From assembly GCA_051294905.1 (NCBI GenBank), contig CM119371.1, positions 3,536,001 through 3,600,000 on the forward strand: a stretch of 64,000 bases of DNA, given 5' to 3'. Source of the stretch: Botryllus schlosseri (taxonomy: Eukaryota). The notes under the pieces were generated by a model, which did not search any database, had not been told where the DNA came from, and saw nothing but the letters and a program-made list of their open reading frames with translations. Shown here in pieces: positions 3,184 through 60,805 of this stretch. A program made the translations under genes and the position numbers. How positions within the stretch are numbered: the first letter of the stretch is position 1; every line of letters begins with the position of its first letter.

Positions 3184-5848
3184 AATATATGGTAGCTTCG
3201 TAAACGGATATGACAGGTTTGCAGTTATTGTGACTAGACTTGACTCGCGTCAATTTATAAAATATGGTGTATAACTCGACTCGATTTGCGGCAAGTTCCA
3301 ATAATATCGAACTTTACTTTTTCTGAGTTGCAATGAAACTCCGTTTCGGCTGCTTGAGTTTTGAGTTATGTGACTTGGTCGAGTCAAACCCAATGACTCG
3401 AGTCATATTCAGCATGTAAGAAATTGACTCTGGTCAAGTCGAGTCACCCACACTCGACGCATTTCTAGCTTCATATGTTTTCCAACTGTGCCACCTCGTG
3501 ACGTGCAGGTATCAGTAGGTTGTGTGTAACGTCGGGAGAAAAGGACAACTCCCAAAGCAGTCGCGCTTGGAACCATTTTGCGGGTACGTTTTCCACTCGT
3601 ACCACAATCTTGCTCATTTCGGTTTCGTATGATTCATCAACGCTGGCTGTCGTACTGACTTTGCCTTGAAACGGAAGTATAGTCGCCGGTGAGGAATATG
3701 TAGATCGAATGTTTTCTCCCCTTCTGCAACCCAGAATTTTGTCACGTTCTCTGTCTTTTCATGCGAGCGCTTGAATATTCCGACGACTTTTACTTGAAAC
3801 TTGGCGGTTTGGGTTCGATTTAACATAGTTTCATTTCCTGTATGTACCTTCTGCTTTGAGAGAAATTTCGCTTTACGCTGTCCTTTGATTTCGAGAGCTT
3901 CCCTAAAAGGTAGGAATTGGTTGTTTTGAACGGAAAAATAGCCCTCGCATCACAGTAACTTGATATATTTTCAAAAATAGCACTGATTATTGGGCTAGGC
4001 ACAATGTGCAAAGGACTCGCATCTGAAATCAGTATTTACTCTACCAATTTGAGTCAACTAGAGAAATTATTCCTCTCCTTACTAGTTGGGGTGTGCGAAA
4101 TCGACTACGTGAGCGATTCGATACTGAATCACATATTAGGCTTCGAGCCCAGTGGAGTATTCAAGTATCACTCATTATGACGAAATACCAGTATGTAAGA
4201 TGTCAAAGTTCATATATATACCTTCTACGCTACTACAAATAATATCATTTATCCACAATACCTATCTCATTGCACTTTGTGACAATGCTGTGGGTTTATG
4301 ATGACTTCAGAAATAGCTTTGTACTAGATGTTCCGTAGGCTCCGATACGGCCAGTCGAGGTTTCAATGCTCCCACAGCAGAAAATACCGCCGAAACTATA
4401 ATTCTCGTTATTCAATTACATTTCATTGGCAAGGAGCGTATAATATCAGCACTCCGAAAATTTCACTACTCGACTCAAATCAATAGATATCTTTATCGAA
4501 GCAGATTAGAATAATCACATCATTGTGCCCAGCCCTACTAACCAATATGTGTTAATTCATTAACTAAATTTATCGTTTCCCTCATATTTCCACTGTGGAA
4601 GCCTTGGAACTGTATTGGTCATTTAACAGTATAAGAAAGCTGTCGTACAAAACTACGTTAGCGGAAAGGAAATATCTGTAAACCCGCAGTATTTGCAATG
4701 AAATAGGCGTTGTCGACAAAAAAACACATTATTTTTAATATGACGTAGAGCTGGCAATATATTATTTGTGGTTGAATGAAAAGTACATATTTGCACTTTC
4801 CTCATGCCCCTATGATGTCATTAGTAAGTTGTTGACTACACGTCTAATATTCGATTCATGGTCAAATCACTCAGCCACTCGATTTTCACAACCCTATCAA
4901 TCAATACTACAAGGAGATTTGTCAGTGGTCATCAACTCTCACAGAACATCATGTTTCAATGATGAGTGACAGTATCGCAAAATCTATTTGGGTGGCCAAC
5001 AAGTTATAAATCACATTAAGAGCGTATTCTTTCACATACTATTTCAGGCTTCACTGAGTATAATATGATTGGCTGGTATGCAGACTTGTACAAGCTACCG
5101 ATCTAGTTAGTTGACGGTCAACTAACAACTGTTTTTTTGGATTAGTTATTGCTGTGGAATTTGAAAAGCGAGTAGATTTAGTTACAGTAGTACATTAAAC
5201 TAACTAGTTGCCAACAACTAGAAAACTCGCGTCATCGTTTGACGTGAATCTTGATCCCGGCGTTTTATTGTGTGATGTTCTTGCAGACATTTCTACCTCA
5301 GAGTTATCACTGCAGCTACTGGCGTGGCTAGGCTTTTAGCAGTTTACAGCCTCCCCATTTCAACTAGGACAAACTACTTCGTGAGGACAGACAGTTCCAA
5401 ACAGAAGTGAAGATAAGTAGTGCAATTCTAACGTTATGTGGGAAAGCACCTAGTTTGCATGATAGGTCAAATTTGTTCAAAATGAGGATTTTTTAGGTCA
5501 AAAATGTTAAAGTTTTGATTTTTTAGATCACAATCTTTGGTTTTTTAGGTAAAAGAATCACCCTAGTCATATCCATCCATGTCATCAAACTCTTCGCTGG
5601 GACTGCCAGCATTCTGATTGCATTTGTGACATGACGATAATGGGGGCGCGAAATTTTTCACTATCAAAAAGGGGGGCGTGTCAAAGAAAATTTGAGAACC
5701 GTTGTTCTAAATCTAATTGAAGTTGCGGGTTTTGCAAAGAGAGTACAGATTTCGGAAATCCAGTAGTTTGTTCAAGTCTGGGTACAGCACCTGAATAGTG
5801 GTTTAAAAGTACGGTAAGCATGAACGAGTCTACCAACGTTTTCCTTAC

Positions 5849-11244: not shown

Positions 11245-12325
11245 CAGTAAATGATTGAGACTTCTGCTGTATGAGTCTGGTTCAGAATGACTTGGACAAC
11301 TAAATAATTCTTGTTGTTTGATTTCACTAATTGTAGGAAAATGTCGGTAATATAATTCTAACATAATTAGATTAATTATTCTTTGCTGTAATTCTAATCC
11401 AATTTCTTAATTCTAATGTATTTTCTGGTTCATCCAGAATTGCTACAGGAGAACTGTACCGTGCAAAACGAGTCGATAATAGTGTGCAGAGATTTGTCAG
11501 CGTCATGCTTATGAGAATAAGGTCAGAAATGATATGAACTGGACTTCATACCATGTACAAGCTTTTGCAAATTGAGTAATTCTAATTACAATCCAATTTG
11601 GTAAAACTGTGTAACTATGTAACTTGAAGTCTGGTCTTATTTGAAAAAAAAGGTCCAGTTATAATTCGAATTCTAGTCTAATTTGGAGAAGAAAAAAAAT
11701 GTGCAGCTGCAACTCTAATTCTAATCTAATTTCGAAAACCTGAAAATCATGTAGTTGTCCAAGTCTGGCTCATAAAACCCCTGGGGTAATCGTATGAGCC
11801 CTGGTTAGTAGGCACCGCTCCAAGGTAAAATACAAAGCATGCAATCAGTTGTGATTCTGACTTTGTACCGTTCACACTTCTAGGAAGATTGTCATAATAA
11901 AGTCAAGTTGCAGAGAGACATTACGATATTTTCTGTTTGGGCCGTTTTGCATTGTTGATCTTTTAACGTTTCTTCCATTCTATTGCGTTGAGACCTTTCG
12001 CGGCTCGCGTTCCTACACAAAAAAAAACACAGCCGGTCAGTGTCGTCAGCATTGCAATTTACTGCAAGTGTTAATCGGATGTGGCTACTTTCGAAGTAGA
12101 TTCTCGATTAGAGCAAAATGATTCACACAAGACACAGGAAGAATATTGGAAACCATTTTCAACTACAACGACACAGGGGACTGTAACTCGGTAAAATAGG
12201 TGTTTAACCTATCTCAAAACTACTCTGTAGTTTTCAAAATCAAAATGCAAAAGTAAGTACCGTAGTTTGGTTGTTAAGTAGAAATGGAAGTAGTCATAAC
12301 ATAACCAATTTAATTAGTTCCGGTA

Positions 12326-12751
12326 CAGAGATGAGCATGGATTAGGATTAGGTTTTGAAAAAACAGGATTTGTGAAATTTTCTTGGATTTGGATTGGATT
12401 TGGATTATACATTTTTTTCAGAACGGATTAGGATTTGGACTGGATTGACATATTTTCTTGGAGATTGAAATGTTGTGTGGCGAATGGCGACAAACTTTAT
12501 TCAGATCAGTTATTAATGTACTTAAGGTTACTAGGTTATCTTGAATCTAGTGAATAGTTGGTTGTGAAAGAAAATTATCGAATCCCTCCATTGCATAAAT
12601 TAGTATTTTTCTGAATTTCCAGTTGGAATCGGATTAGGATTAGACATGGACTTGAATGTGTAAAATTGATGGATTAGAATTTGGATATGGATTTGAAGGT
12701 TCGGATTTGGATTGGATTAGGACATAGAAATTTCAAATCCGCTCATCTCTG
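12326..12751. mobile_element. hAT-type MITE with GGATTW microrepeats
   Basis: TIR CAGAGATGAGC / GCTCATCTCTG. Flanking direct repeat TCCGGTA. Many GGATT(T/A) units inside. Confidence 0.7.
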
Positions 12752-13095
12752 TCCGGTATACTAAGCAAAATATACTAAAAATTTTAGGAATCAAAATGGA
12801 GTCAAATGCCATCCAAGCGGGAAGCAGTAATCTTCACAGCAAACAAAAACTTCATGTTCACTGAAAATGAGCTTTTAAAGTTGGTATGTAATAGTTGTAA
12901 ATATCAGCTAAAATAGTTGAGAATCACTGGGTGACATGAACTCAAACGGGAACTGTACCGCTCGGATACTATGATGATTAATTATGATAAAAATGTAGGA
13001 GAGTGGGTCTTGGATATAAATGTGTTACATGATACCATGCCATAGACTGCAGGTCTGTCAGATATAATACTATTTTATACATCGATACGCTAGTG

Positions 13096-38841: not shown

Positions 38842-39640
38842 GGGACACTGTACAACCCGCAAAACTTGTAAAACCCGCAAAACTTGCAAAACTCGCAAAA
38901 GCAAGGCATATTCAGGTAATTGTATAGGTATCTTTTACAATATTGTCGCTGTAGGCCTCAAGATATCATCGATTAGTTATGGAATTTAACTGCCGGTAAA
39001 TATAAAGCAGGGTTTTATAGTTGGCTACGAGGGTTTTGCGGTTGTCCAGAAGGGTTTTGGTGGGACCTAACAGGGTGTTGCTGGTGATTAGCAGGGTTTT
39101 GCGATTGTCTAAGAGAGTTTTGCGGGTGAAAATAGGGTTTTGCGGTTGTTTAAGAGAGTTTTGCGGGTGAAAAATAGGGTTTTGCGGTTGTCCAAGAGAG
39201 TTTTAAGGTTGTATAGGAGAGTTTCGCGGTTGACTACCAGAGTTTTGCGGTCGTAAAGAAGAGTTCTGCAGTTAACTAGCAGGGTAGCAGTAGTCAACCT
39301 CCAAACTCTACTATACAACCGCAAAACTCTCCTACACAACCGCAAAACTCTGTAGTAGTCAGCCGCAAAACCCCATTTTGCACCTGCAGAACTCTCTTAG
39401 ACAACCGCAAAACCCTGTTAGGTAACCACAAAATCCTTCTGGACAACCGCAAAACCCTCGCAGCCAACTGCAATACCCTGCTAGTCACCCGCAAAACCCT
39501 GCCGTATACTTACCGGCAGTTTAATTCAATAACTAATCCATGATATCTTGAGGCCTACAGCGACAATATTGTATAAAAGATACCTACAATTACCTGAATA
39601 AGCCTTGCTTTTGCGAGTTTTGCGGGTTTTACAGTGTCCC
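38842..39640. mobile_element. Foldback MITE with 9-bp TSD (Mutator-type)
   Basis: TIR GGGACACTGTA / TACAGTGTCCC. Perfect TSD GCTAAAAAT at 38833-38841 and 39641-39649. The element is palindromic with ~21-bp internal units (GGGTTTTGCGGTTG...). Confidence 0.9.
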
Positions 39641-46100: not shown

Positions 46101-48840
46101 AAAGTACTAGACATGATTCAAATTCATTACTAGGGCGATTTTATTTGACACTTCAAAAGAAGTCAAATTTTGTTTTACATGGTGAGTTTGATTTATTTAG
46201 CTGTTCTTGTGTAAATCACACTAACATGTAACTTAGTTACTCCCGCCATTTACCGGCTTCAAAAATCTAGTATTTTTCGGCTGTAACTCGTTTTGTGTTC
46301 ACAATAGACAAACCTTGCTTCTAAGACAGAGAGAAACATGATGTTTTCGCATGACCCTACGACCAGTGGTTGTCGAGATGAGCAATTTCACCCCCTCTCG
46401 CGCAGAAATTGGGGGGATGCTGGCTGAAAAATAAAGGCAATCCCCTAAAACCAACTTTTATTGAAGTTTCAAGTCATTTTTCTGGACTTAAGAATCCCCT
46501 TTTTTCGATTTGAAAAAAAGTCATTTTCACTCCACCCTACAACATTTCAGCATTTAACGACAAATGACAATACATATCCTCGCATCTTCACCAAGTCTAC
46601 CTACCTCTAATTTAAATCAAGTTCTGACACATGAAACAATTGTCTGGCATTTATCCTGATTGCTACACAACCTTTGTCAAATTGTACGCATTCGCGTAAA
46701 ATACATTGTCTCTCCATATTCTGATTTAACCCAAATAAAATGCAAGGCCCCAGCAAACACAAAACCGTAAAAGGATCATCCGGGATCATCTCGATTAGGT
46801 TCTGATTTTCTAAGTGTCGAGGGAATGTCTAAAATACGTAGTAGGATGGTCTTGTGGTTATATTCAATCAGAATAAATTCATACTAGGTGTTGTTCCATC
46901 TCATGCATTAGGCTTCGTTATATCCGGTAGTTAACCTAATAATGCAAATTTTCTATCTCTCGCGGGTACGACTAAAATACGTAGAAAGGATGACTTTGTC
47001 GGTACATTCAATCACGATGAATTCTATCCGGTTTTGTTCGATCTCATGCGGTAGCTTCGTTCTATCCATTAGAAAACAATGTTCTCCCTTCGTTTTATTG
47101 CGTGAGGATGTCACCGGTGTTGTATATTCGTGTTGTTGCTCTAAGGTCGAATAGTTTTGTTTTCCTCTGATATATATGATCTTCATTATATATATATTCG
47201 CTCTTTCGGTAATCTCGCATGTTCAACGAGTATGGTTAATAGTTTTATTCAGAGAATAACTAAATAAGTGATATGTTGTACGTTTAGGAATATGATTATC
47301 GATGCGTGACTTCTAGAATATTTCGGCGATTCAAATTTTAAGTCATCGCGCCATACAAAGATTTGACGCGCAACAGGTCGCAGCCAGGCATAGTTCGCTC
47401 TTTCTGTATGGTAAATGCCGTAAATATATAGGAATTGTGACTGACTGAGGTAGCGGGTTAAAGGTATATATGCAGTAGCATATAGCTTATGGGGTATTTC
47501 GAATTGCCTGTAGTATATGACGCCTAGAGCTGTTTGACTTTCTGCAAAACAGGTGTAGACAACTATAGAAAAGTTTCAGCTTTTCCAGGTTAGAATTAGA
47601 GCTAAACCGTTTTTCCGAATTAGATTACAATTATATTGCTGGCATTTCGCTCTAATTTAGTGAAATTAGACCACTATAATTCGCTTCAAACATCTGAATT
47701 ACCGGTACCTATACCTACGGTATATCATAATATTTATGCCTGAATTTTCTAGGTATATAAGTCATATAGATACATACCTGTAGAACACTGATTCATGATT
47801 TTATAAAAGTTGGTGCAAGAATGGACATTTTCAACTTGATGTTGATTAATGGAGCAAAATTTGATATTTGAGTGCAATTATACCTCGAATCCAGTGACAA
47901 GATTATTAATCGTTGAAACCAAACGCAGCTTGATTATGTTGGCCCAGAGAATTTGGCTAGCCAGACCATATTGATGGAATATGGTCACAGTAAGATAATA
48001 TTTTGGGCTATTTTACATGAACTTTCCAACATTTGATTTGATATGTCCACTAAAACAGTTGTTATTCTGCTTTCGAATAAGACCTTAATTGCTGGTTTCA
48101 ATGGTAACTGTGTTTGTCAAAGGCTGCAAAGGTAATTTCTTTTCCATGTTAGATGTTTATTTGTTTGTTTGTGGTGTTCATGGTGGTGGTTCGACTACAC
48201 TGGTCATTTTACACCAGGCCGGTTCTTATTATTATTATTCCGTATCTGCCCGATTACCAGTGAACTCGGCACTTAGTGAATTCGGCCGCACAAACTCGGC
48301 ACTTGGAGAATTCGGGTCAAGTGTAGAATCCGGGCAGTGTTCCCCATGACCACCACCGATCAGTGTTGCACCTGAAACTGTCGGAATTCATAGTGCTTCA
48401 CGTAGTTACCGACTATGCTCCCCACTAAACCCTATAAATACTGTCAAGGTTCCATATTATATCTTATCATATTATTATATCTTGAATTCACAGATACACA
48501 TGCCGGTGACGAGCAAGATTACATTTTACATCGCTCGCTCGCATGCCAGATGAACGGCTTGTACAAGAAATCGAAGGAAAGGGGAAAGGAAGCGACTTAC
48601 TCCAATCTCTTCACCACATTATGTATTGTGTATCGCATTTTTATCGAAAATTTAGAAAATAAAACGTATGACGCCTATACTATCAAGTGTATCTAGTGTA
48701 CTTTGCGGCCACTAAACTCATGTACGGACACTTGCAAGATGTGGGGAGATGGTGAAGGTTTATCTGGGCTCCTCTTCACCCGCGCCGTTGCCCAGAAAAG
48801 ACCCGACGTAAGAAAGCACTCATGTATAAGAAACCCCCAT

Positions 48841-50776
48841 AGTCGTGTATGGTATCTAGTGTACTTTTCAGCCACAATACTTATGTGAAGACACTCGCAT
48901 AGTCGCGTATCATACCAAGTGTACTTTCCAGCCACAATAGTTATGTACAGACACTCGCATAGTAGGGTATGATACCAAGTGTACTTTTCAGCCACAAGAC
49001 TTATGTGAAGACACTCGCATAGACGCGTATCATACCAAGTGTACTTTCCAGCCACAAGACTTATGTGAAGACACTCGCATAGTCGCGTATCATACCAAGT
49101 GCACTTTTCAGCCACAATACTTATGTGAAGACACTCGCATAGTCGCGTATCATACCAAGTGTACTTTACAGCCACAAGACTTATGTGAAGACACTCGCAT
49201 AGTCGCGTATCATACCAAGTGCACTTTTCAGCCACAATACTTATGTGAAGACACTCGCATAGTCGCGTATCATACCAAGTGCACTTTTCAGCCACAATAC
49301 TTATGTGAAGACACTCGCATAGTCGCGTATCATACCAAGTGTACTTTACAGCCACAAGACTTATGTGAAGACACTCGCATAGTCGCGTATCATACCAAGT
49401 GCACTTTTCAGCCACAATACTTATGTGAAGACACTCGCATAGTCGCGTATCATACCAAGTGTACTTTCCAGCCACAATAGTTATGTACAGACACTCGCAT
49501 AGTCGCGTATCATACCAAGTGTACTTTTCAGCCACAAGACTTATGTGAAGACACTCGCATAGTCGCGTATCATACCAAGTGCACTTTTCAGCCACAATAC
49601 TTATGTGAAGACACTCGCATAGTCGCGTATCATACCAAGTGCACTTTTCAGCCACAATACTTATGTGAAGACACTCGCATAGTCGCGTATCATACCAAGT
49701 GTACTTTACAGCCACAAGACTTATGTGAAGACACTCGCATAGTCGCGTATCATACCAAGTGTACTTTTCAGCCACAAGACTTATGTGGAGACACTCGCAT
49801 AGTCGCGTATCATACCAAGTGTACTTTCCAGCCACAATAGTTATGTACAGACACTCGCATAGTAGGGTATGATACCAAGTGTACTTTTCAGCCACAAGAC
49901 TTATGTGAAGACACTCGCATAGTCGCGTATCATACCAAGTGTACTTTCCAGCCACAATAGTTATGTACAGACACTCGCATAGTAGGGTATGATACCAAGT
50001 GTACTTTTCAGCCACAAGACTTATGTGAAGACACTCGCATAGTCGCGTATGATACCAAGTGTACTTTTCAGCCACAAGACTCATGTGAAGACACTCGCAT
50101 AGTCGCGTATCATACCAAGTGCACTTTTCAGCCACAATACTTATGTGAAGACACTCGCATAGTCGCGTATCATACCAAGTGCACTTTTCAGCCACAATAC
50201 TTATGTGAAGACACTCGCATAGTCGCGTATCATACCAAGTGTACTTTCCAGCCACAATAGTTATGTACAGACACTCGCATAGTAGGGTATGATACCAAGT
50301 GTACTTTTCAGCCACAAGACTTATGTGAAGACACTCGCATAGTCGCGTATCATACCAAGTGTACTTTCCAGCCACAATAGTTATGTACAGACACTCGCAT
50401 AGTAGGGTATGATACCAAGTGTACTTTTCAGCCACAAGACTTATGTGAAGACACTCGCATAGTCGCGTATGATACCAAGTGTACTTTTCAGCCACAATAC
50501 TTATGTGAAGACACTCGCATAGTCGCGTATCATACCAAGTGTACTTTCCAGCCACAATAGTTATGTACAGACACTCGCATAGTAGGGTATGATACCAAGT
50601 GTACTTTTCAGCCACAAGACTTATGTGAAGACACTCGCATAGTCGCGTATCATACCAAGTGTACTTTCCAGCCACAATAGTTATGTACAGACACTCGCAT
50701 AGTAGGGTATGATACCAAGTGTACTTTACAGCCACAATACTTATGTGAAGACACTCGCATAGTCGCGTATCATACC
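48841..50776. repeat. 60-bp minisatellite, ~32 units (left arm)
   Basis: Exact 60-bp periodicity. Consensus AGTCGCGTATCATACCAAGTGTACTTTTCAGCCACAAGACTTATGTGAAGACACTCGCAT with a few recurring variants. Confidence 0.98.
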
Positions 50777-51020
50777 TAGCGTTATTTTTTATTATTGTAT
50801 TATTACGTCATACTTTGCCTTTTTGGTTTTCGTTTGAATCTCTCTCTGTATGCTTATTATTGTGCCGTTAACTCTCGATAAGGGGCACACGAAAAGTCTT
50901 CGAGTTAATAAATTCTTTACTGCAATGAATGTAGTTGTGAAAGCAAAACTCAAGTTTAGTACCGCCAACCATATTTTCAAGCTACAAACTAATGGCTTTC
51001 TTGATATTTACCATTCACAG

Positions 51021-51934
51021 AAATGCTCGGATTTCATTAGCATCCGGCATGGCTCATTTTTTTACAAAAGTAATCTCACCCCGACGAAACTTTTGTACAT
51101 GGTGTACTTTTGGTCAAAGGACCATGACCAGGTAATGATTATCGACGAGCTTAAAATAAGCAACAGGACCTGCATCGACTGGTGCCAGTTTTTCAGGGAG
51201 GTATTGTCAAAATTCTATTGTAAAGTAAGGCACTCTATTTACTCTAAAGCTTTGTGGCAAATTCCAGATCTGCTCAGCCGATCTGTTAAGGGGTTCCGGC
51301 GTCATCGGTGGCCCGGGACATGTGGTGGCGATCGACGAATCGGTAATTGCCAAGAGGGGCCGTGGTGCCAACGCTCAGGCAAGACCGATTCCACAGCAAT
51401 GGATATTCGGAGGCGTGGACCTCATCACAAAGTTTGTGCATAGAAAATAAAAATCCAACGTCAGCAAAACTTTAAAAGTATATAATGTTTTATGCAGCCA
51501 ATGCTTTATGCGATTCGTCGATCGACGGGACGCAAACACCTTGCTGCCAATCATTCGGCAATACATTGCTCCGGGCACCGAAATTTGGTCGGATGAATGG
51601 GCAGCGTATCGGGGCATAACCGGTAAATGAAGTCTTATACAGCGATAATGGTGAATGTTAGTAAAACATTTCCGTTTCCTTATCAGGAATGGGCAACGGC
51701 TACACCCATAAAACAGTCTGCCACAAACACCTGTTTAAGACTCCCCAAGGTGTTCACACCAATAATATTGAGAGACTTTGGAGCGACTGTAAACGGAAGT
51801 TCAAGAGAATGAACGGCACGGTACGGGGGTTCGTACCCTCATACATCGATGAATGGATGTGGCGTCGGACCAGAGAAAGAGATCATTACTTTTCGGACAT
51901 TGTTCAGGAAATCGCCAGGCAATACCCAGTGTAA
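51021..51934 (+). CDS. Merlin (IS1595/ISXO2-like) DDE transposase, spliced, 5' exon(s) not identified
   Basis: Exons 51021-51200, 51268-51431, 51498-51622 and 51687-51934, joined by 67, 66 and 64-bp GT-AG introns, give one open frame: KCSDFISIRHGSFF...DWCQFFRE|ICSADL..IGGPGHVVAIDESVIAKR...WIFGGVD..|QCFMRFVDRRDANTLLPIIRQYIAPGTEIWSDEWAAYRGIT|GMGNGYTHKTVCH...GVHTNNIERLWSDCKR...YIDEWMWRR...YPV*. Catalytic D, D and E are present. Confidence 0.9.
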
Positions 51935-52159
51935 AATGAGCCCTTTAATTTATTGAGATTTGACTTCTCAGAATTATCTAGTTATCGAAGTGTGCCTGCA
52001 ATTTCGTAATTTCGTTTTTTTTTCTACATTTCGTTTCGTTTCTGTTTTGTTGATAAACGTGCTGCCATTGGCTATAGTTCGAGTCTATCTATATTTGACC
52101 GGACGTTGGAGTAGGAGTCAGGGTCAGGGCCATTTCTATAATATGCGAGTGTCTGTACA

Positions 52160-53416
52160 CAGAGGTGGTCAAGGTAGTCAAGAAAGCTACTCAAGTAGAT
52201 GTAGAAGTAGCGAAGCAAAAATCTACTCAAGTAGAAGTACTGATTTCATGAGCAGCATAAAACTAATTGAAGTAGAAGTAGAATTGACTGACTTTAAAAG
52301 TACTCAAGTAAGTAAATAGTTGTGAAAACGATCCTGATTGGATGGATTATCAAAAGTTGCAAATTGAGCTATGTGATATAGGTGACGAGCTTGATTCATA
52401 TTGATGCATACCAGCAGGTATCCAATTTTCGATAGCATAAGCATTCGTCCACATCATGTAGTGAAAATGATAGTATTGATAAGGAAATGCGATACTAATC
52501 CTCTGTGTTCTCGAACAACGCGTTTTGGAAAATAGCATGGTATGGCGCCTTCCCCCTATAAGGCCCGTAGTTTAGTCGAAGTGCAATATGGATAAGTTGT
52601 ATAGGATACGGTGTAAACAGTTTGCGCGATTTGTAAACGTTAACAAAAAATATCGTGAACCGTAAAAATGCCATATTGTGTAGCTATATTTCCAGAATTT
52701 AAAGGCATTACTGCACTTGCTTTTATACTTCAACATGTATGTTATTCGGACAAAAGAACTGATATTAATTATAACTCAAAGTAGGCTATATGATACTGAG
52801 AATTGAAAGTGAAATATAAATACTGTTTCTGAAAGCAGAATATATATTTCATGTTTTTAGTCCAGTAAGTTTCAAGGGTGGTATGCTAAAACACTTTTCC
52901 AGGACATGCCATGGACATATATATGCTAGATTACGATATGACAAGAAAATGCTAGATTGCGAAACATCAGTTTCAAACGTTATGATGAGCCATATACTGT
53001 GATGAATTATTTCATGGGTGATGGGCAACAATGTGGTGTGAACGGAACCACTCCAACCCTCCACTTAAATTATATTCACCGATACTTTCGTGAAATCATA
53101 CTGGTCACACCGTATCCACTGCGCGCGAAGCGCGACGAAAATTCTGTGCTTTACTAAACTTTTATGAAAATTAAATGTTGATACTCCGTGAAAACAGCTC
53201 CGAAATTCCTCAGGCTATCTTCCTGATTGGAAGATTGAACTACTTCTACTTGACAAACTGAAAATAGCGAAAAGTAAGTAAGTATATCACAAAATATTAA
53301 GAAGTAGAAGTATAGGTAGCGAAAATCAGATCTACTTGAGTAAGTACCAGAAGTAGACGAAAACTACTTGAGTACTTCGAAAAAGTAGAAATACTTCGAT
53401 ACTATAACCACCTCTG
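52160..53416. mobile_element. hAT-type element inserted in the innermost unit of the Merlin right array
   Basis: TIR CAGAGGTGGT / ACCACCTCTG. Perfect TSD TCTGTACA at 52152-52159 and 53417-53424. AAGTAG subterminal repeats. A related end at ~62711. Confidence 0.9.
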
Positions 53417-54307
53417 TCTGTACATAAGTATCGTGGCTGAAAAGTACACTTGGTATCATACCCTGCTATGCGAGTGTCTGTACATAACTATTGTGGCTGG
53501 AAAGTACACTTGGTATGATACGCGACTATGCGAGTGTCTTCACATAAGTCTTGTGGCTGAAAAGTACACTTGGTATCATACCCTACTATGCGAGTGTCTG
53601 TACATAACTATTGTGGCTGGAAAGTACACTTGGTATGATACGCGACTATGCGAGTGTCTCCACATAAGTCTTGTGGCTGAAAAGTACACTTGGTATGATA
53701 CGCGACTATGCGAGTGTCTTCACATAAGTCTTGTGGCTGTAAAGTACACTTGGTATGATACGCGACTATGCGAGTGTCTTCACATAAGTATTGTGGCTGA
53801 AAAGTGCACTTGGTATGATACGCGACTATGCGAGTGTCTTCACATAAGTCTTGTGGCTGAAAAGTACACTTGGTATCATACCCTACTATGCGAGTGTCTG
53901 TACATAACTATTGTGGCTGGAAAGTACACTTGGTATGATACGCGACTATGCGAGTGTCTCCACATAAGTCTTGTGGCTGAAAAGTACACTTGGTATGATA
54001 CGCGACTATGCGAGTGTCTTCACATAAGTCTTGTGGCTGAAAAGTACACTTGGTATCATACCCTACTATGCGAGTGTCTGTACATAACTATTGTGGCTGG
54101 AAAGTACACTTGGTATGATACGCGTCTATGCGAGTGTCTTCACATAAGTCTTGTGGCTGAAAAGTACACTTGGTATCATACCCTACTATGCGAGTGTCTG
54201 TACATAACTATTGTGGCTGGAAAGTACACTTGGTATGATACGCGACTATGCGAGAGTCTTCACATAAGTATTGTGGCTGAAAAGTACACTAGATACCATA
54301 CACGACT
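53417..54307. repeat. 60-bp minisatellite, ~15 units (right arm, inverted relative to left)
   Basis: Reverse complement of the 48841-50776 unit. A partial first unit lies at 52143-52159, before the hAT insertion. Confidence 0.98.
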
Positions 54308-56301
54308 ATGGGGGTTTCTTATACATGAGTGCTTTCTTACGTCGGGTCTTTTCTGGGCAACGGCGCGGGTGAAGAGGAGCCCAGATAAACCTTCACCATC
54401 TCCCCACATCTTGCAAGTGTCCGTACATGAGTTTAGTGGCCGCAAAGTACACTAGATACACTTGATAGTATAGGCGTCATACGTTTTATTTTTTAAATTT
54501 TCGATAAAAATGCGATACACAATACATAATGTGGTGAAGAGATTGGAGTAAGTCGCTTCCTTTCCCCTTTCCTTCGATTTCTTGTACAAGCCGTTCATCT
54601 GGCATGCGAGCGAGCGATGTAAAATGTAATCTTGCTCGTCACCGGCATGTGTATCTGTGAATTCAAGATATAATAATATGATAAGATATAATATGGAACC
54701 TTGACAGTATTTATAGGGTTTAGTGGGGAGCATAGTCGGTAACTACGTGAAGCACTATGAATTCCGACAGTTTCAGGTGCAACACTGATCGGTGGTGGTC
54801 ATGGGGAACACTGGCCGGATTCCACACTTGACCCGAGAATTCGGCCGTGGTAGATCTCGTAGCGGTACCGGTCACCATGATTGGTTACTGTAATGTTTGC
54901 CGGTGAACTTGGCACTTTGAGTGGTTGTCAATGTTGTACGGGGGTCAGGGCATGCGTAGATCACACAGTCACGGCGTGATTAGATCACAGATTGCGTAAT
55001 TGCGGGAAATAACGCAACGCTCTTCACTTGGTGAACTCGGCCCTTGGAGGAATTGGCACTAGAACACCTTCGCATTAGAAATGCATTTAGTATGAATGAA
55101 CAGTATCAAAAAGGAAATTTAAACGTGTCGTGGCTCGTGGTAGATCTCGTAATCTTGGGATCCTTCAACCGTGTTATCGAGACACCCTAATCCCAGAGTG
55201 GAATCGTCTCTCCAAAGGCAAAAAATAATTTATTTTGACGTGATCATGCGAAACATTTGTTGATGAGGAACACTGGCTTGTCGTGATCGATAAACGAAGA
55301 AGCGCCGCTTGATGTTCCACAGTTTTGATCTCACATACAACGCCAAGATCCATCTTCTCAAAACTTACACGACACAGGCCCGTGACTCACGCCATCGATT
55401 CCAAGCAGATCGCGCGTGGTCGGCATATGAGCGCTGTGTTATTTCCCGTGTTTACGCAATCCGTGATCTAATCACGCCGTGACTGCGCGATCTACGGATG
55501 CCCTGACCTCCTTACAAGATTGACGAATCACTTGATAATACTATTATTAGTTTGATAATTCATATTAATAGCTGTAAATACACTTCATTTCAAAATTTCC
55601 CGAGGGCCGAATTCACCAAGTGCCGAGTTTGTGCGGCCGAATTCACCAAGTGCCGGGTGCATCGGCAACCATCTGCCCACTTACAGCACGGCCCACTCCT
55701 AGGCTTTTTAAGACATGGCTATGCGAATCAGATGGCGAGGAGGAGCCTAGATAAACGGCCAACACTTCGGTAGGAATTATGGAGTAGACGTGTCAGGCTC
55801 GAACCCGCAATTCATTGGTGTTTAGCTATAATGGAACGTACCACTACGTTTCCTCGCCATACCTTGTAAAATGAGACCGTAGCATTTGGCATTTCGTGTG
55901 GCAATTGACTTTTGTGTGGAAAATTGTGTTCGTCTTAGAACTTATCCGAAACTTTTATTCCGCCATAGATTGTATATGATAAAACGATATCGGAATTGAT
56001 CCTAGAAGAATTCCAAAGCAACTCACCACAAAGGAGGATTTAAAGAAGTTTGATGGAAAATTGAATGAAAGCAAAAGCCTTTGCAAGAGATGTGGTATGT
56101 TGAATCTGTTTTGGTATTTTTAAATAGGCCTACTTTGTTGTGCCGATAGCAGACGGTATATATAAACGTAAGATGTGGAAGCTATCAAGGTGTTTTTAGA
56201 AATTCAGTCAGTCAAAGTGGACGATCGTATTGCTTGGATTATATTTAGGCTTATTTTAGCATCTTTGAGATGCAACTCTGAACGTGAACGGTCATGAACA
56301 G

Positions 56302-59622: not shown

Positions 59623-60805
59623 GGTTGCCAGTGAACTCGGCACCTGGTGAAATCGGCGCTTGTATTGTGACGCAACGATGCCGCATGTCGGTATTGGTCT
59701 ACTCGGTACATGTATTGCTAATTTGACGGATAGAGGGAATGATTGATATAATCGATGGACAATGGACATGGACAATTGGATATATGCGTTGAGATTGAAG
59801 TGGGGCCGCTACTGGTAGTCGATCTTTACAACCGGGTAAGTCGAATATTGCTAATTAATTCGATGTGAGCTATCAGATCTTAACTAAATTTTGTTTGCAG
59901 GAAGATGCCGTTGATATTGAAGTGGGTCCGCTACCGGTAGCCGATCTTAACAACCAGGTAAGTCGAATAGTGCTAATTAATTCGATATGAGTGATCAGAT
60001 TTTAACTTATAATTTTGTTTGCAGGAAGATGATCTCATTGAGTCGTCGTTATCCGATGTGTCCGCTGCTCAGGTCAACTCTGAAATGTCATGCTCGGACG
60101 AGTCAACTAATAAAATATTGGAGGGTGTATCGCAAAGAGGATGAGATATGCTGTTTGACGACTAAAGTCGATCGTTATTCTTACACCAGGAAGATGAAAA
60201 AAAAACATGCCTCAATTCTTTGGAGATGCAAGAATCGTGCAAAATATATGTATTTTATTTATAGCTTTCAATACAATATCCATTGTAAAATAATATTTAT
60301 TGAACTCGAAGACTTTTCGGGTGCCTCTTTTCAAGAGTTAACGGCACACATATTTTATTTATTAGTTGATTAGTTATTGATAAGTTCAGCTGTTAGGTTT
60401 ATTAGAGATTTTATAAGTTCAATACAACACAACAATACTGATTTTGTATTAGCTGATTACTTATAGGAAGGTGTGATTTTGTCACAGGTAGCTTGGTCAG
60501 GAGCAAGGTGAAGGGTGACATTAGGGAAACATCCTGCTAACAAAATATAGTTGAAGGGCGATATTTAATTTATAATATCCGTTTCTTTGAAGGCAAAAAC
60601 TGATTATTTTGGCCTTCATAAGTTTCGATGTGTTCATGGGAAACATTTATTGGTGTCATGGGGAACATTGTATTGTCATAAACTTGAAACAATAGAGATC
60701 GCACAGCATCTACGGTCAAACGAAGTGCCGAGTTCATCAAGTGCCGAGTTCACCAAGTGCCGAGTTCAAGGTGCCGAGTTGAAGGTGCCGAGTTCACTGG
60801 CAACC
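59623..60805 (+). mobile_element. Internally deleted GG-ended element with FLYWCH-like transposase relic (MULE/Phantom-like)
   Basis: TIR GGTTGCCAGTGAACTCGGCAC / GTGCCGAGTTCACTGGCAACC, with five GTGCCGAGTT repeats at the right end. Perfect TSD ACTACACT at 59615-59622 and 60806-60813. Exons 59755-59835, 59901-59957 and 60025-~60245 end in ILEGVSQRG*DMLFDD..YSYTRKMKKKHASILWRCKNR. Confidence 0.85.

Follow-up and report, generated by a model that had tools for sequence, protein, structure and literature searches.

Bacterial relatives of the IS1016/IS1595 type have no introns and short inverted repeats. Here, we describe a transposon of the related Merlin superfamily that is built very differently. 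It occupies positions 48314–54834 of a 64,000-nucleotide stretch of Botryllus schlosseri DNA (contig CM119371.1, positions 3,536,001 to 3,600,000; hereafter the window). We read it as a cut-and-paste insertion with Foldback-like terminal inverted repeats (TIRs) of 2.46 and 1.43 kb and a 5′-truncated transposase gene, probably non-autonomous. The probability that we attach to this reading is roughly 0.85.

In the original description of Merlin, TIRs measure 24–462 bp and start with GG, and the target-site duplication (TSD) is 8 or 9 bp (PMC8101967, summarising Feschotte 2004). Classical Merlin families and IS1016/IS1595 share the DDE_Tnp_IS1595 domain, 5′-GG termini and an 8- or 9-bp TSD with the element described here (PMC8101967). 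Its arms, in contrast, are 2463 bp (left) and 1430 bp (right, after subtraction of a nested insert). Closer counterparts are found in zebrafish. In S1 Table of the same 2021 survey, Merlin-1_DR and Merlin-N5_DR (Danio rerio, Repbase 23.11) are given a TIR size of 1000 (PMC8101967). Merlin-N5_DR has a 113-bp repeat, in 5.2 copies at 531–1114 and again at 3193–3775. Merlin-2_DR, in which the domain and the DDE triad are conserved, has a 79-bp repeat, in 12.5 copies at 847–1832 and 9.7 copies at 12117–12880 (PMC8101967). By our reading of these coordinates, the two Merlin-2_DR arrays mirror each other in an element of ~13.7 kb; the table itself lists the TIR as NA.

Hence, as judged from the table entries, zebrafish Merlins have the same kilobase-scale arms with arrays at mirror positions, and in Merlin-2_DR copy numbers are also unequal. 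The likeness drawn here is one of layout. The unit is 60 bp here but 79, 113 or 44/99 bp in zebrafish. With 32 and 15 copies our arrays exceed those of zebrafish in length, whereas the element, at 5.26 kb without the nested insert, is the shorter one. For Merlin, an outer arm of unique sequence that leads into an unequal minisatellite is thus already catalogued, and our element joins a known layout. The first-pass annotation of the window had suggested a possible Foldback-type Merlin family; the 1000-bp TIRs and the symmetric, unequal arrays in S1 Table remove any novelty of the layout. On this architecture, the sections drawn on here of the survey, the one broad account of Merlin, remark only that internal tandem repeats were previously undescribed (PMC8101967). 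Literature searches combining Merlin with foldback or tandem repeats, and with satellite DNA or TIRs, yielded general reviews and this survey but no paper describing a Foldback-like Merlin. Four short strings from the element had no match in the full-text literature. The family may already be present in a repeat library for its host.

Similar arms occur outside Merlin. Copies of Foldback (FB) in Drosophila usually have little or no central region, and FB is not known to be tied to a Merlin-type transposase. The element here is unlike FB in having a 1.36-kb core with a Merlin gene. FB and Tetris, also from Drosophila, have arms composed mostly of short tandem repeats, and satellite DNA can be seeded by these repeats (for Tetris, PMC4079207). 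Galileo, a Foldback-like member of the P superfamily in Drosophila, has long repetitive TIRs of up to ~1.25 kb. According to the parts of the account cited here, the number of tandem repeats differs between the arms of one Galileo copy, and these repeats have been proposed or reported to be secondary transposase-binding sites (PMC3573991). Galileo differs in its P/THAP transposase, which is not IS1595-like, and in its bounding sequences of 7 bp, against 8 bp here. Its repeat is also longer and less reiterated (~210 bp in 2–3 copies, against 60 bp in 15–32 copies; PMC3573991).

Termini, inverted arms and minisatellite arrays

The element is a single insertion with GGG...CCC ends and a perfect 8-bp TSD, GAGAATTC. 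At the left junction, GAGAATTC at 48306–48313 is followed by GGGTCAAGTG from 48314. At the right junction, CACTTGACCC ends at 54834 and GAGAATTC recurs at 54835–54842, identical at 8 of 8 positions. The right end is the reverse complement of GGGTCAAGTG, and both TIRs begin 5′-GG. The terminal 26-mer is found at just two sites in the window, the two ends of the element, with 0 and 2 mismatches (0.00 expected by chance). One element with these boundaries, a perfect TSD and GG termini had been proposed in the first-pass annotation, and all of this is borne out.

The element inserted into another transposon, at the second of its subterminal repeats, and the sequence present before insertion is legible across the TSD. 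The ends of this host transposon, 48261–48313 and 55609–55661, are inverted copies with 92% identity. The host transposon (about 48240–48313 plus 54835–55690) has a doubled motif of the form CTCGGCACTTGGTGAATTCGGCC at each end. Related pieces are located at 59625–59657 and 60623–60803.

The longest inverted pair, 48312–49733 with 53415–54836, extends over 1422 nt and is 96% complementary. Each arm consists of a unique outer part and then a minisatellite, the Foldback-like construction that had first been noted. The left outer arm (48314–48840, + strand) is 527 bp of non-tandem sequence starting GGGTCAAGTGTA. It is 99.4% identical to the reverse complement of the 527-bp right outer arm (54308–54834, − strand), which ends with CACTTGACCC. 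The differences are at three of the 527 sites (arm positions 12, 21 and 342). A degenerate copy of the 60-bp unit is embedded in the left outer arm (about 48689–48736). The left minisatellite (48838–50776, +) contains 32.3 units, with 91% matches at period 60 in Tandem Repeats Finder (TRF). The right minisatellite (53417–54310, −) has 15 units in all; TRF reports 14.9 copies at 53415–54310, with 89% matches. Its innermost piece (52140–52159, −) has been severed by a nested insertion, and the complete unit is restored once 52160–53424 is removed. Arrays make up 79% of the left arm and 63% of the right. A 24-mer of the unit has 47 matches in the window, all within the element, with 0.00 expected by chance. 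The earlier description of 527-bp arms leading into 60-bp arrays therefore holds.

The near-identity of the arms had also been taken as a sign of recent mobility. The arms of a cut-and-paste element, unlike long terminal repeats, both come from the donor copy, so their near-identity gives no insertion date. It points instead to homogenisation between the arms, or to an arm duplication that arose recently. The perfect 8-bp TSD alone speaks for a fairly young insertion, and a putative hAT-type element has had time to land inside.

That nested element, overlooked in the first-pass annotation, is non-autonomous and 1257 bp long (52160–53416), with termini CAGAGGTGGT...ACCACCTCTG. Its 8-bp TSD, TCTGTACA, is at 52152–52159 and 53417–53424. 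Excision of the element and one TSD copy restores a full 60-bp unit, after which comes the inner end of the right array; the insertion was into the innermost right-arm unit. Elements of the hAT superfamily produce 8-bp TSDs and have short TIRs of the CAG.G type, and non-autonomous copies do not need a transposase. No hAT protein was found inside 52160–53416. The nested element also contains TACTCAAGTA-type subterminal repeats and belongs to a family that is extremely abundant in the host. From its termini and these repeats, we presume a resemblance to Tol2-like hAT elements.

Positions 50700–52200 were compared with read contigs from four sequencing runs, of which run X7 is from another study than run X1; the summed contig depth quoted here and below is not a copy number. 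At 52160, depth jumps to 167,000–383,000. The loose ends at 52159/52160 are heterogeneous (agreement 0.36–0.48), a pattern to be expected where the tip of an element from a very abundant family is reached. A contig from X7 runs from 51917 to 52156 straight into the array without the nested element, and 2 of 35 positions differ from the array in the window.

To compare the arrays, we typed units by exact sequence. The left arm gave the string ABCDEFEEFEBGEEFHBCBCIEEBCBCJBCBK. The right arm, read inward, gave LBCMCHBCEFHBCBN. The outer four units carry private variants common to both arms: A and L are one base apart, and D and M have the same rare base. The run E-F-H-B-C-B is also present in both arms, and the B-C pair forms a 120-bp higher-order repeat. 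Because these unit blocks recur in both arms, the arrays share a common origin. Each has since gained and lost whole units independently, most likely by slippage or unequal exchange. Such independent change would give 32 units in one arm and 15 in the other, with unit blocks still shared.

Two long open reading frames (ORFs) cross the arrays, one of 704 codons in the left (48693–50807, −) and one of 371 codons in the right arm (53340–54455, +). We do not regard either as a gene. A 60-nt unit equals 20 codons, and any one of its frames is stop-free with a chance of ~0.38; ORFs that cross the arrays are therefore expected.

Assemblies are prone to errors at long tandem arrays and at inverted repeats, and the arms or array lengths could in principle stem from satellite misassembly or chimeric long reads. 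We consider this very improbable. The GG termini are clean and the TSD is perfect, inside a recognisable host transposon. The core is unique. The order of units is non-trivial yet related between arms, and a putative hAT insertion with its own TSD interrupts one unit. In addition, the X7 short-read contig reproduces the junction between core and right array, while the unit counts of the arrays come from the assembly only.

The 8-mer CAAGTGTA occurs at 39 sites inside the Merlin element but at 1 in the other 57.5 kb of the window. It is present in most 60-bp units. Only three of the 39 sites are outside the arrays: 48318, at the left tip, and 48684 and 54457, in the degenerate unit, one per arm. 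Since CAAGTGTA is shared by the left tip, the degenerate subterminal unit and most 60-bp units, the most likely starting point of the arrays is a subterminal transposase-binding region that became duplicated. By analogy with Galileo (PMC3573991), the 60-bp units might, more tentatively, be extra transposase-binding sites. A metagenome scan with the unit returned 0 loci.

The core and its transposase gene

Once the nested element is set aside, the true core of the Merlin element is 50777–52139 (1363 bp). An apparent core of 2.6 kb had included the nested insertion. A four-exon gene is predicted on the + strand. Exon 1 runs from the first ATG (50925–51200), with Merlin homology starting only at about 50991–51009 (residue 23–30). 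Exon 2 (51268–51431), placed by homology to relatives, contains the first catalytic Asp, D115 (51334–51336), in the motif VAIDES. Exon 3 (51498–51622) contains the second, D179 (51592–51594; WSDEW). Exon 4 (51687–51934) contains the catalytic Glu, E217 (51770–51772; NNIERLW), and the stop codon. The 3′ non-coding part of the core (51935–52139, +) reaches the inner end of the right array and is covered by the X7 contig that continues into that array. The three introns have lengths of 67, 66 and 64 nt and GT..AG borders throughout. Computed splicing yields a 270-codon frame in which the sole stop is terminal.

Exons 3 and 4 match adjacent parts of PF12762 (DDE_Tnp_IS1595), both above the 27-bit gathering score. 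Exon 3 covers profile positions 52–91 (E 9.8e-8) and exon 4 positions 94–152 of 153 (E 2.4e-6). The same Pfam scan, run on the four exon translations at E up to 10, gave nothing for exon 2 by itself. The only other hit, in exon 1, was to GP4 (E 0.1) and is noise; no P/THAP-type transposase was detected. Similarly, the presence of only an IS1595-like transposase, in a 1.36-kb central core, sets the element apart from Mutator-related Phantom and the Drosophila FB lineage.

We built a hidden Markov model (HMM) from relatives of the predicted protein. Of 17 relatives of 280–360 aa, we kept those of at least 305 aa (P0006, P0011, P0015, P0017, P0026, P0040, P0051, P0054, P0085, P0097, P0098, P0110 and P0117); P0001, P0069, P0080 and P0091 were left out. 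Against the computed spliced product, this 13-relative model scored 280 bits, aligning profile 78–322 to residues 30–270 unbroken across the three junctions. The separate frames match successive parts of the profile (78–150, 141–194, 197–238 and 237–322). D115, D179 and E217 align to conserved columns of the relatives. The spacing between the two Asp residues is 64, within the 50–70 residues given for Merlin D-D blocks in the legend to Fig 3 of the survey (PMC8101967).

Named relatives are animal proteins, namely a Ciona savignyi ISXO2-like transposase domain protein and Rhagoletis XP proteins. Together with the short introns (64–67 nt), these relatives suggest an animal host. Among the longer proteins of a 5.8-billion-protein set, the exon 4 search gave one match among three candidates (38% identity, 290 aa) and no annotated near-identical protein. 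Matches to exon 4 in the ESM Atlas were all bacterial IS1595/IS1016 clusters. The gene is thus predicted to encode an IS1595/Merlin DDE transposase, complete in its catalytic half and at its C-terminus. This agrees with the original proposal of a stop-free, four-exon Merlin transposase. The predicted splicing is well supported by homology.

The 5′ end tells a different story. A phmmer search with exon 1 of 1.84 billion representatives found 151 proteins at E ≤ 1e-3 (best 7e-10). The ten best matches start at query residue 15–42 and lie at about residue 70–145 in relatives of 305–350 aa. In tblastn, 16 of the 17 relatives align only from their own residue 60–98, at window positions 51003–51039. 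The exception, P0097, aligns from residue 11, but does so via the upstream frame and with only 26% identity. At the other end, the alignment stops no more than two residues short of the relative's C-terminus in 9 of the 17. All 13 aligned full-length relatives have ~75 additional N-terminal residues, most with CxxC and then W.C....C. The copy here lacks the first Cys pair (CxxC), and its later motif reads Y.S....C. An HMM of the N-terminal part found nothing at E < 1 among 3553 six-frame segments of the whole window. No missing N-terminal exon was found in the 527-bp arm with the same HMM or by reading its ORFs by eye.

In place of the N-terminal coding sequence is a segment of an unrelated high-copy repeat (50786–50990), identified by contig depth, which supplies the ATG at 50925. 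In contigs from public runs of the same organism, which lend independent support, summed depth is 27,000–48,000 over 50751–50954 versus 24–270 over 51006–52127, and drops ~100-fold or more at about 50990. An 85-nt part of the repeat, with an ATG in the same place, recurs with 81% identity at 60348–60264, away from the Merlin arms. Hence, the ATG and the first 22–29 codons are non-Merlin sequence, which the first-pass annotation had not noticed. The 85-nt core forms a small hairpin (GTGCC...GGCAC) followed by the conserved ATG, and the copy at 60264–60348 is inside a relative of the host transposon, ~9 kb off. One guess is that the repeat entered the Merlin core as filler DNA during gap repair.

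The frame had been called intact. For the catalytic core this stands. By comparison with relatives, the predicted product nevertheless lacks ~75 N-terminal residues, including the first CxxC of a zinc-ribbon-like region, and has the foreign repeat instead; homology starts at position 78 of the 322-position profile. Because of this replacement, the copy is unlikely to make a complete transposase.

Other copies, transcripts and rival origins

Other copies are glimpsed in short-read contigs. In run X1, the coding region is spanned by several variant contigs, 93–99% alike. Exonic indels that shift the frame are present in some of them, at 51057, 51189, 51289 and 51825. Another join, in one contig, fuses 50776, the end of the left array, to 51329. 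The 25 listed substitutions between 51102 and 51923 (21 further rows are unlisted) comprise 8 in introns, 8 synonymous and 9 non-synonymous changes, which hints only roughly that the coding region may once have been under purifying selection. About three single-cell RNA reads fall just past the stop codon, at 51873–52076.

These data bear on whether the 270-codon ORF from 50925 is itself a working transposase with a lineage-specific short N-terminus, in an element currently active alone. The continuous four-exon frame, the intact DDE triad, the complete C-terminus and the perfect TSD all fit such an element. So do the RNA reads past the stop and the listed exonic differences, which are more often synonymous than under neutral decay. 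Against this, 13 of 13 full-length relatives are ~75 residues longer at the N-terminus, the first Cys pair is absent and one later Cys is a Ser. The first 22–29 residues and the ATG come from a repeat also found outside any Merlin (60264–60348), and no spliced reads were seen. We therefore think an autonomous element quite unlikely, and prefer a 5′-truncated copy.

The 60-bp unit has a summed depth of ~58,000, compared with 24–270 for the coding region. This is far more than 47 units per coding copy would give, and points to free arrays or to numerous copies that have arrays but no gene. The same rough imbalance would suit a composite origin, in which a small Merlin or a Merlin fragment ended up in the middle of arms belonging to a pre-existing Foldback-like or other non-autonomous element. 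The foreign 5′ part of the core (50786–50990) shows that the centre has been rearranged, and 8-bp TSDs are also made by hAT and P elements. However, the inner core boundaries, at 50777 and 52139, have no inverted repeat, GG/CC termini or 8-bp duplication, and the sole transposase inside is Merlin. Independent contigs also place the array next to the Merlin core (X7 at 52156; X1 joining 50776 to 51329). The outer termini have the GG and 8-bp TSD reported for every Merlin family (PMC8101967). A composite origin is therefore unlikely, and we continue to treat arms and core as one Merlin element.

Several observations count against our interpretation of a truncated, non-autonomous Merlin with repeat-built arms. 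The ORF retains an ATG and a continuous frame, and a shortened protein may have some activity or a regulatory role. A check of the three junctions against RNA had been proposed; no spliced joint appeared in any of the four runs, and the exon structure keeps its homology support only. The bulk RNA run (X21), from another organism than the single-cell run, placed 0 reads and is no test of the junctions. The single-cell RNA run (X23) had zero depth over 51006–51872, nearly all of its 364 placed reads being on high-copy repeats. A single long contig covers the gene (X7, 803 nt, 51111–51915), and it retains the introns. The link between transposase and termini is drawn from one copy, and no bridge across the junction of left array and core (50776/50777) appeared in independent data. 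Lastly, the right tip reads CAAGTGTG instead of CAAGTGTA. The binding-site idea draws on one shared 8-mer, and the chance of a match between a 26-nt tip and a 60-nt unit is, by rough estimate, ~0.04.

Elsewhere in the window, a second, small foldback-like structure is found at 38879–39630. Its inverted arms are up to 263 nt long, 79% complementary and separated by almost no spacer. Within them, tandem repeats of 21 bp (and 42 bp) run in opposite directions, at 39009–39273 and 39291–39502. A 122-bp tandem repeat in two copies, 89% alike, is present at 59787–60031. The 11 longest ORFs outside the Merlin element matched no Pfam family at E ≤ 0.01, and the window had no Rfam match at gathering score.

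Mobility and significance of the element

From what is known of DDE cut-and-paste elements, the full-length transposase of the family would bind the GG termini, excise the element and integrate it via staggered cuts 8 bp apart. The copy described here could presumably move only if such a transposase, supplied in trans, acted on its intact GG termini. The putative hAT-type element landed later, in the innermost right-arm unit.

A more ambitious proposal is possible but doubtful. The element may represent a still-mobile, Foldback-like Merlin family in which the CAAGTGTA units are extra binding sites, non-coding array copies outnumber coding copies by more than 10:1 and the arrays seed a 60-bp satellite. 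If true, Merlin would join P (Galileo) and the Foldback elements as a further superfamily that reached the Foldback architecture independently, and one in which the link between transposase and array can be traced.

As a discovery, the element is modest. Zebrafish Merlins in Repbase already show this layout, and the copy is defective; its value is as a specimen of convergent architecture. Long, repeat-filled TIRs have arisen in several unrelated superfamilies of DNA transposon. They have been linked to the birth of satellite DNA and to ectopic recombination, for example in the inversions generated by Galileo. The copy in the window clearly shows how such arms are constructed: unique sequence on the outside leads into a minisatellite, which has blocks in common between the arms but has expanded unequally in them. 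It could serve to test whether the repeats are binding sites for the transposase.

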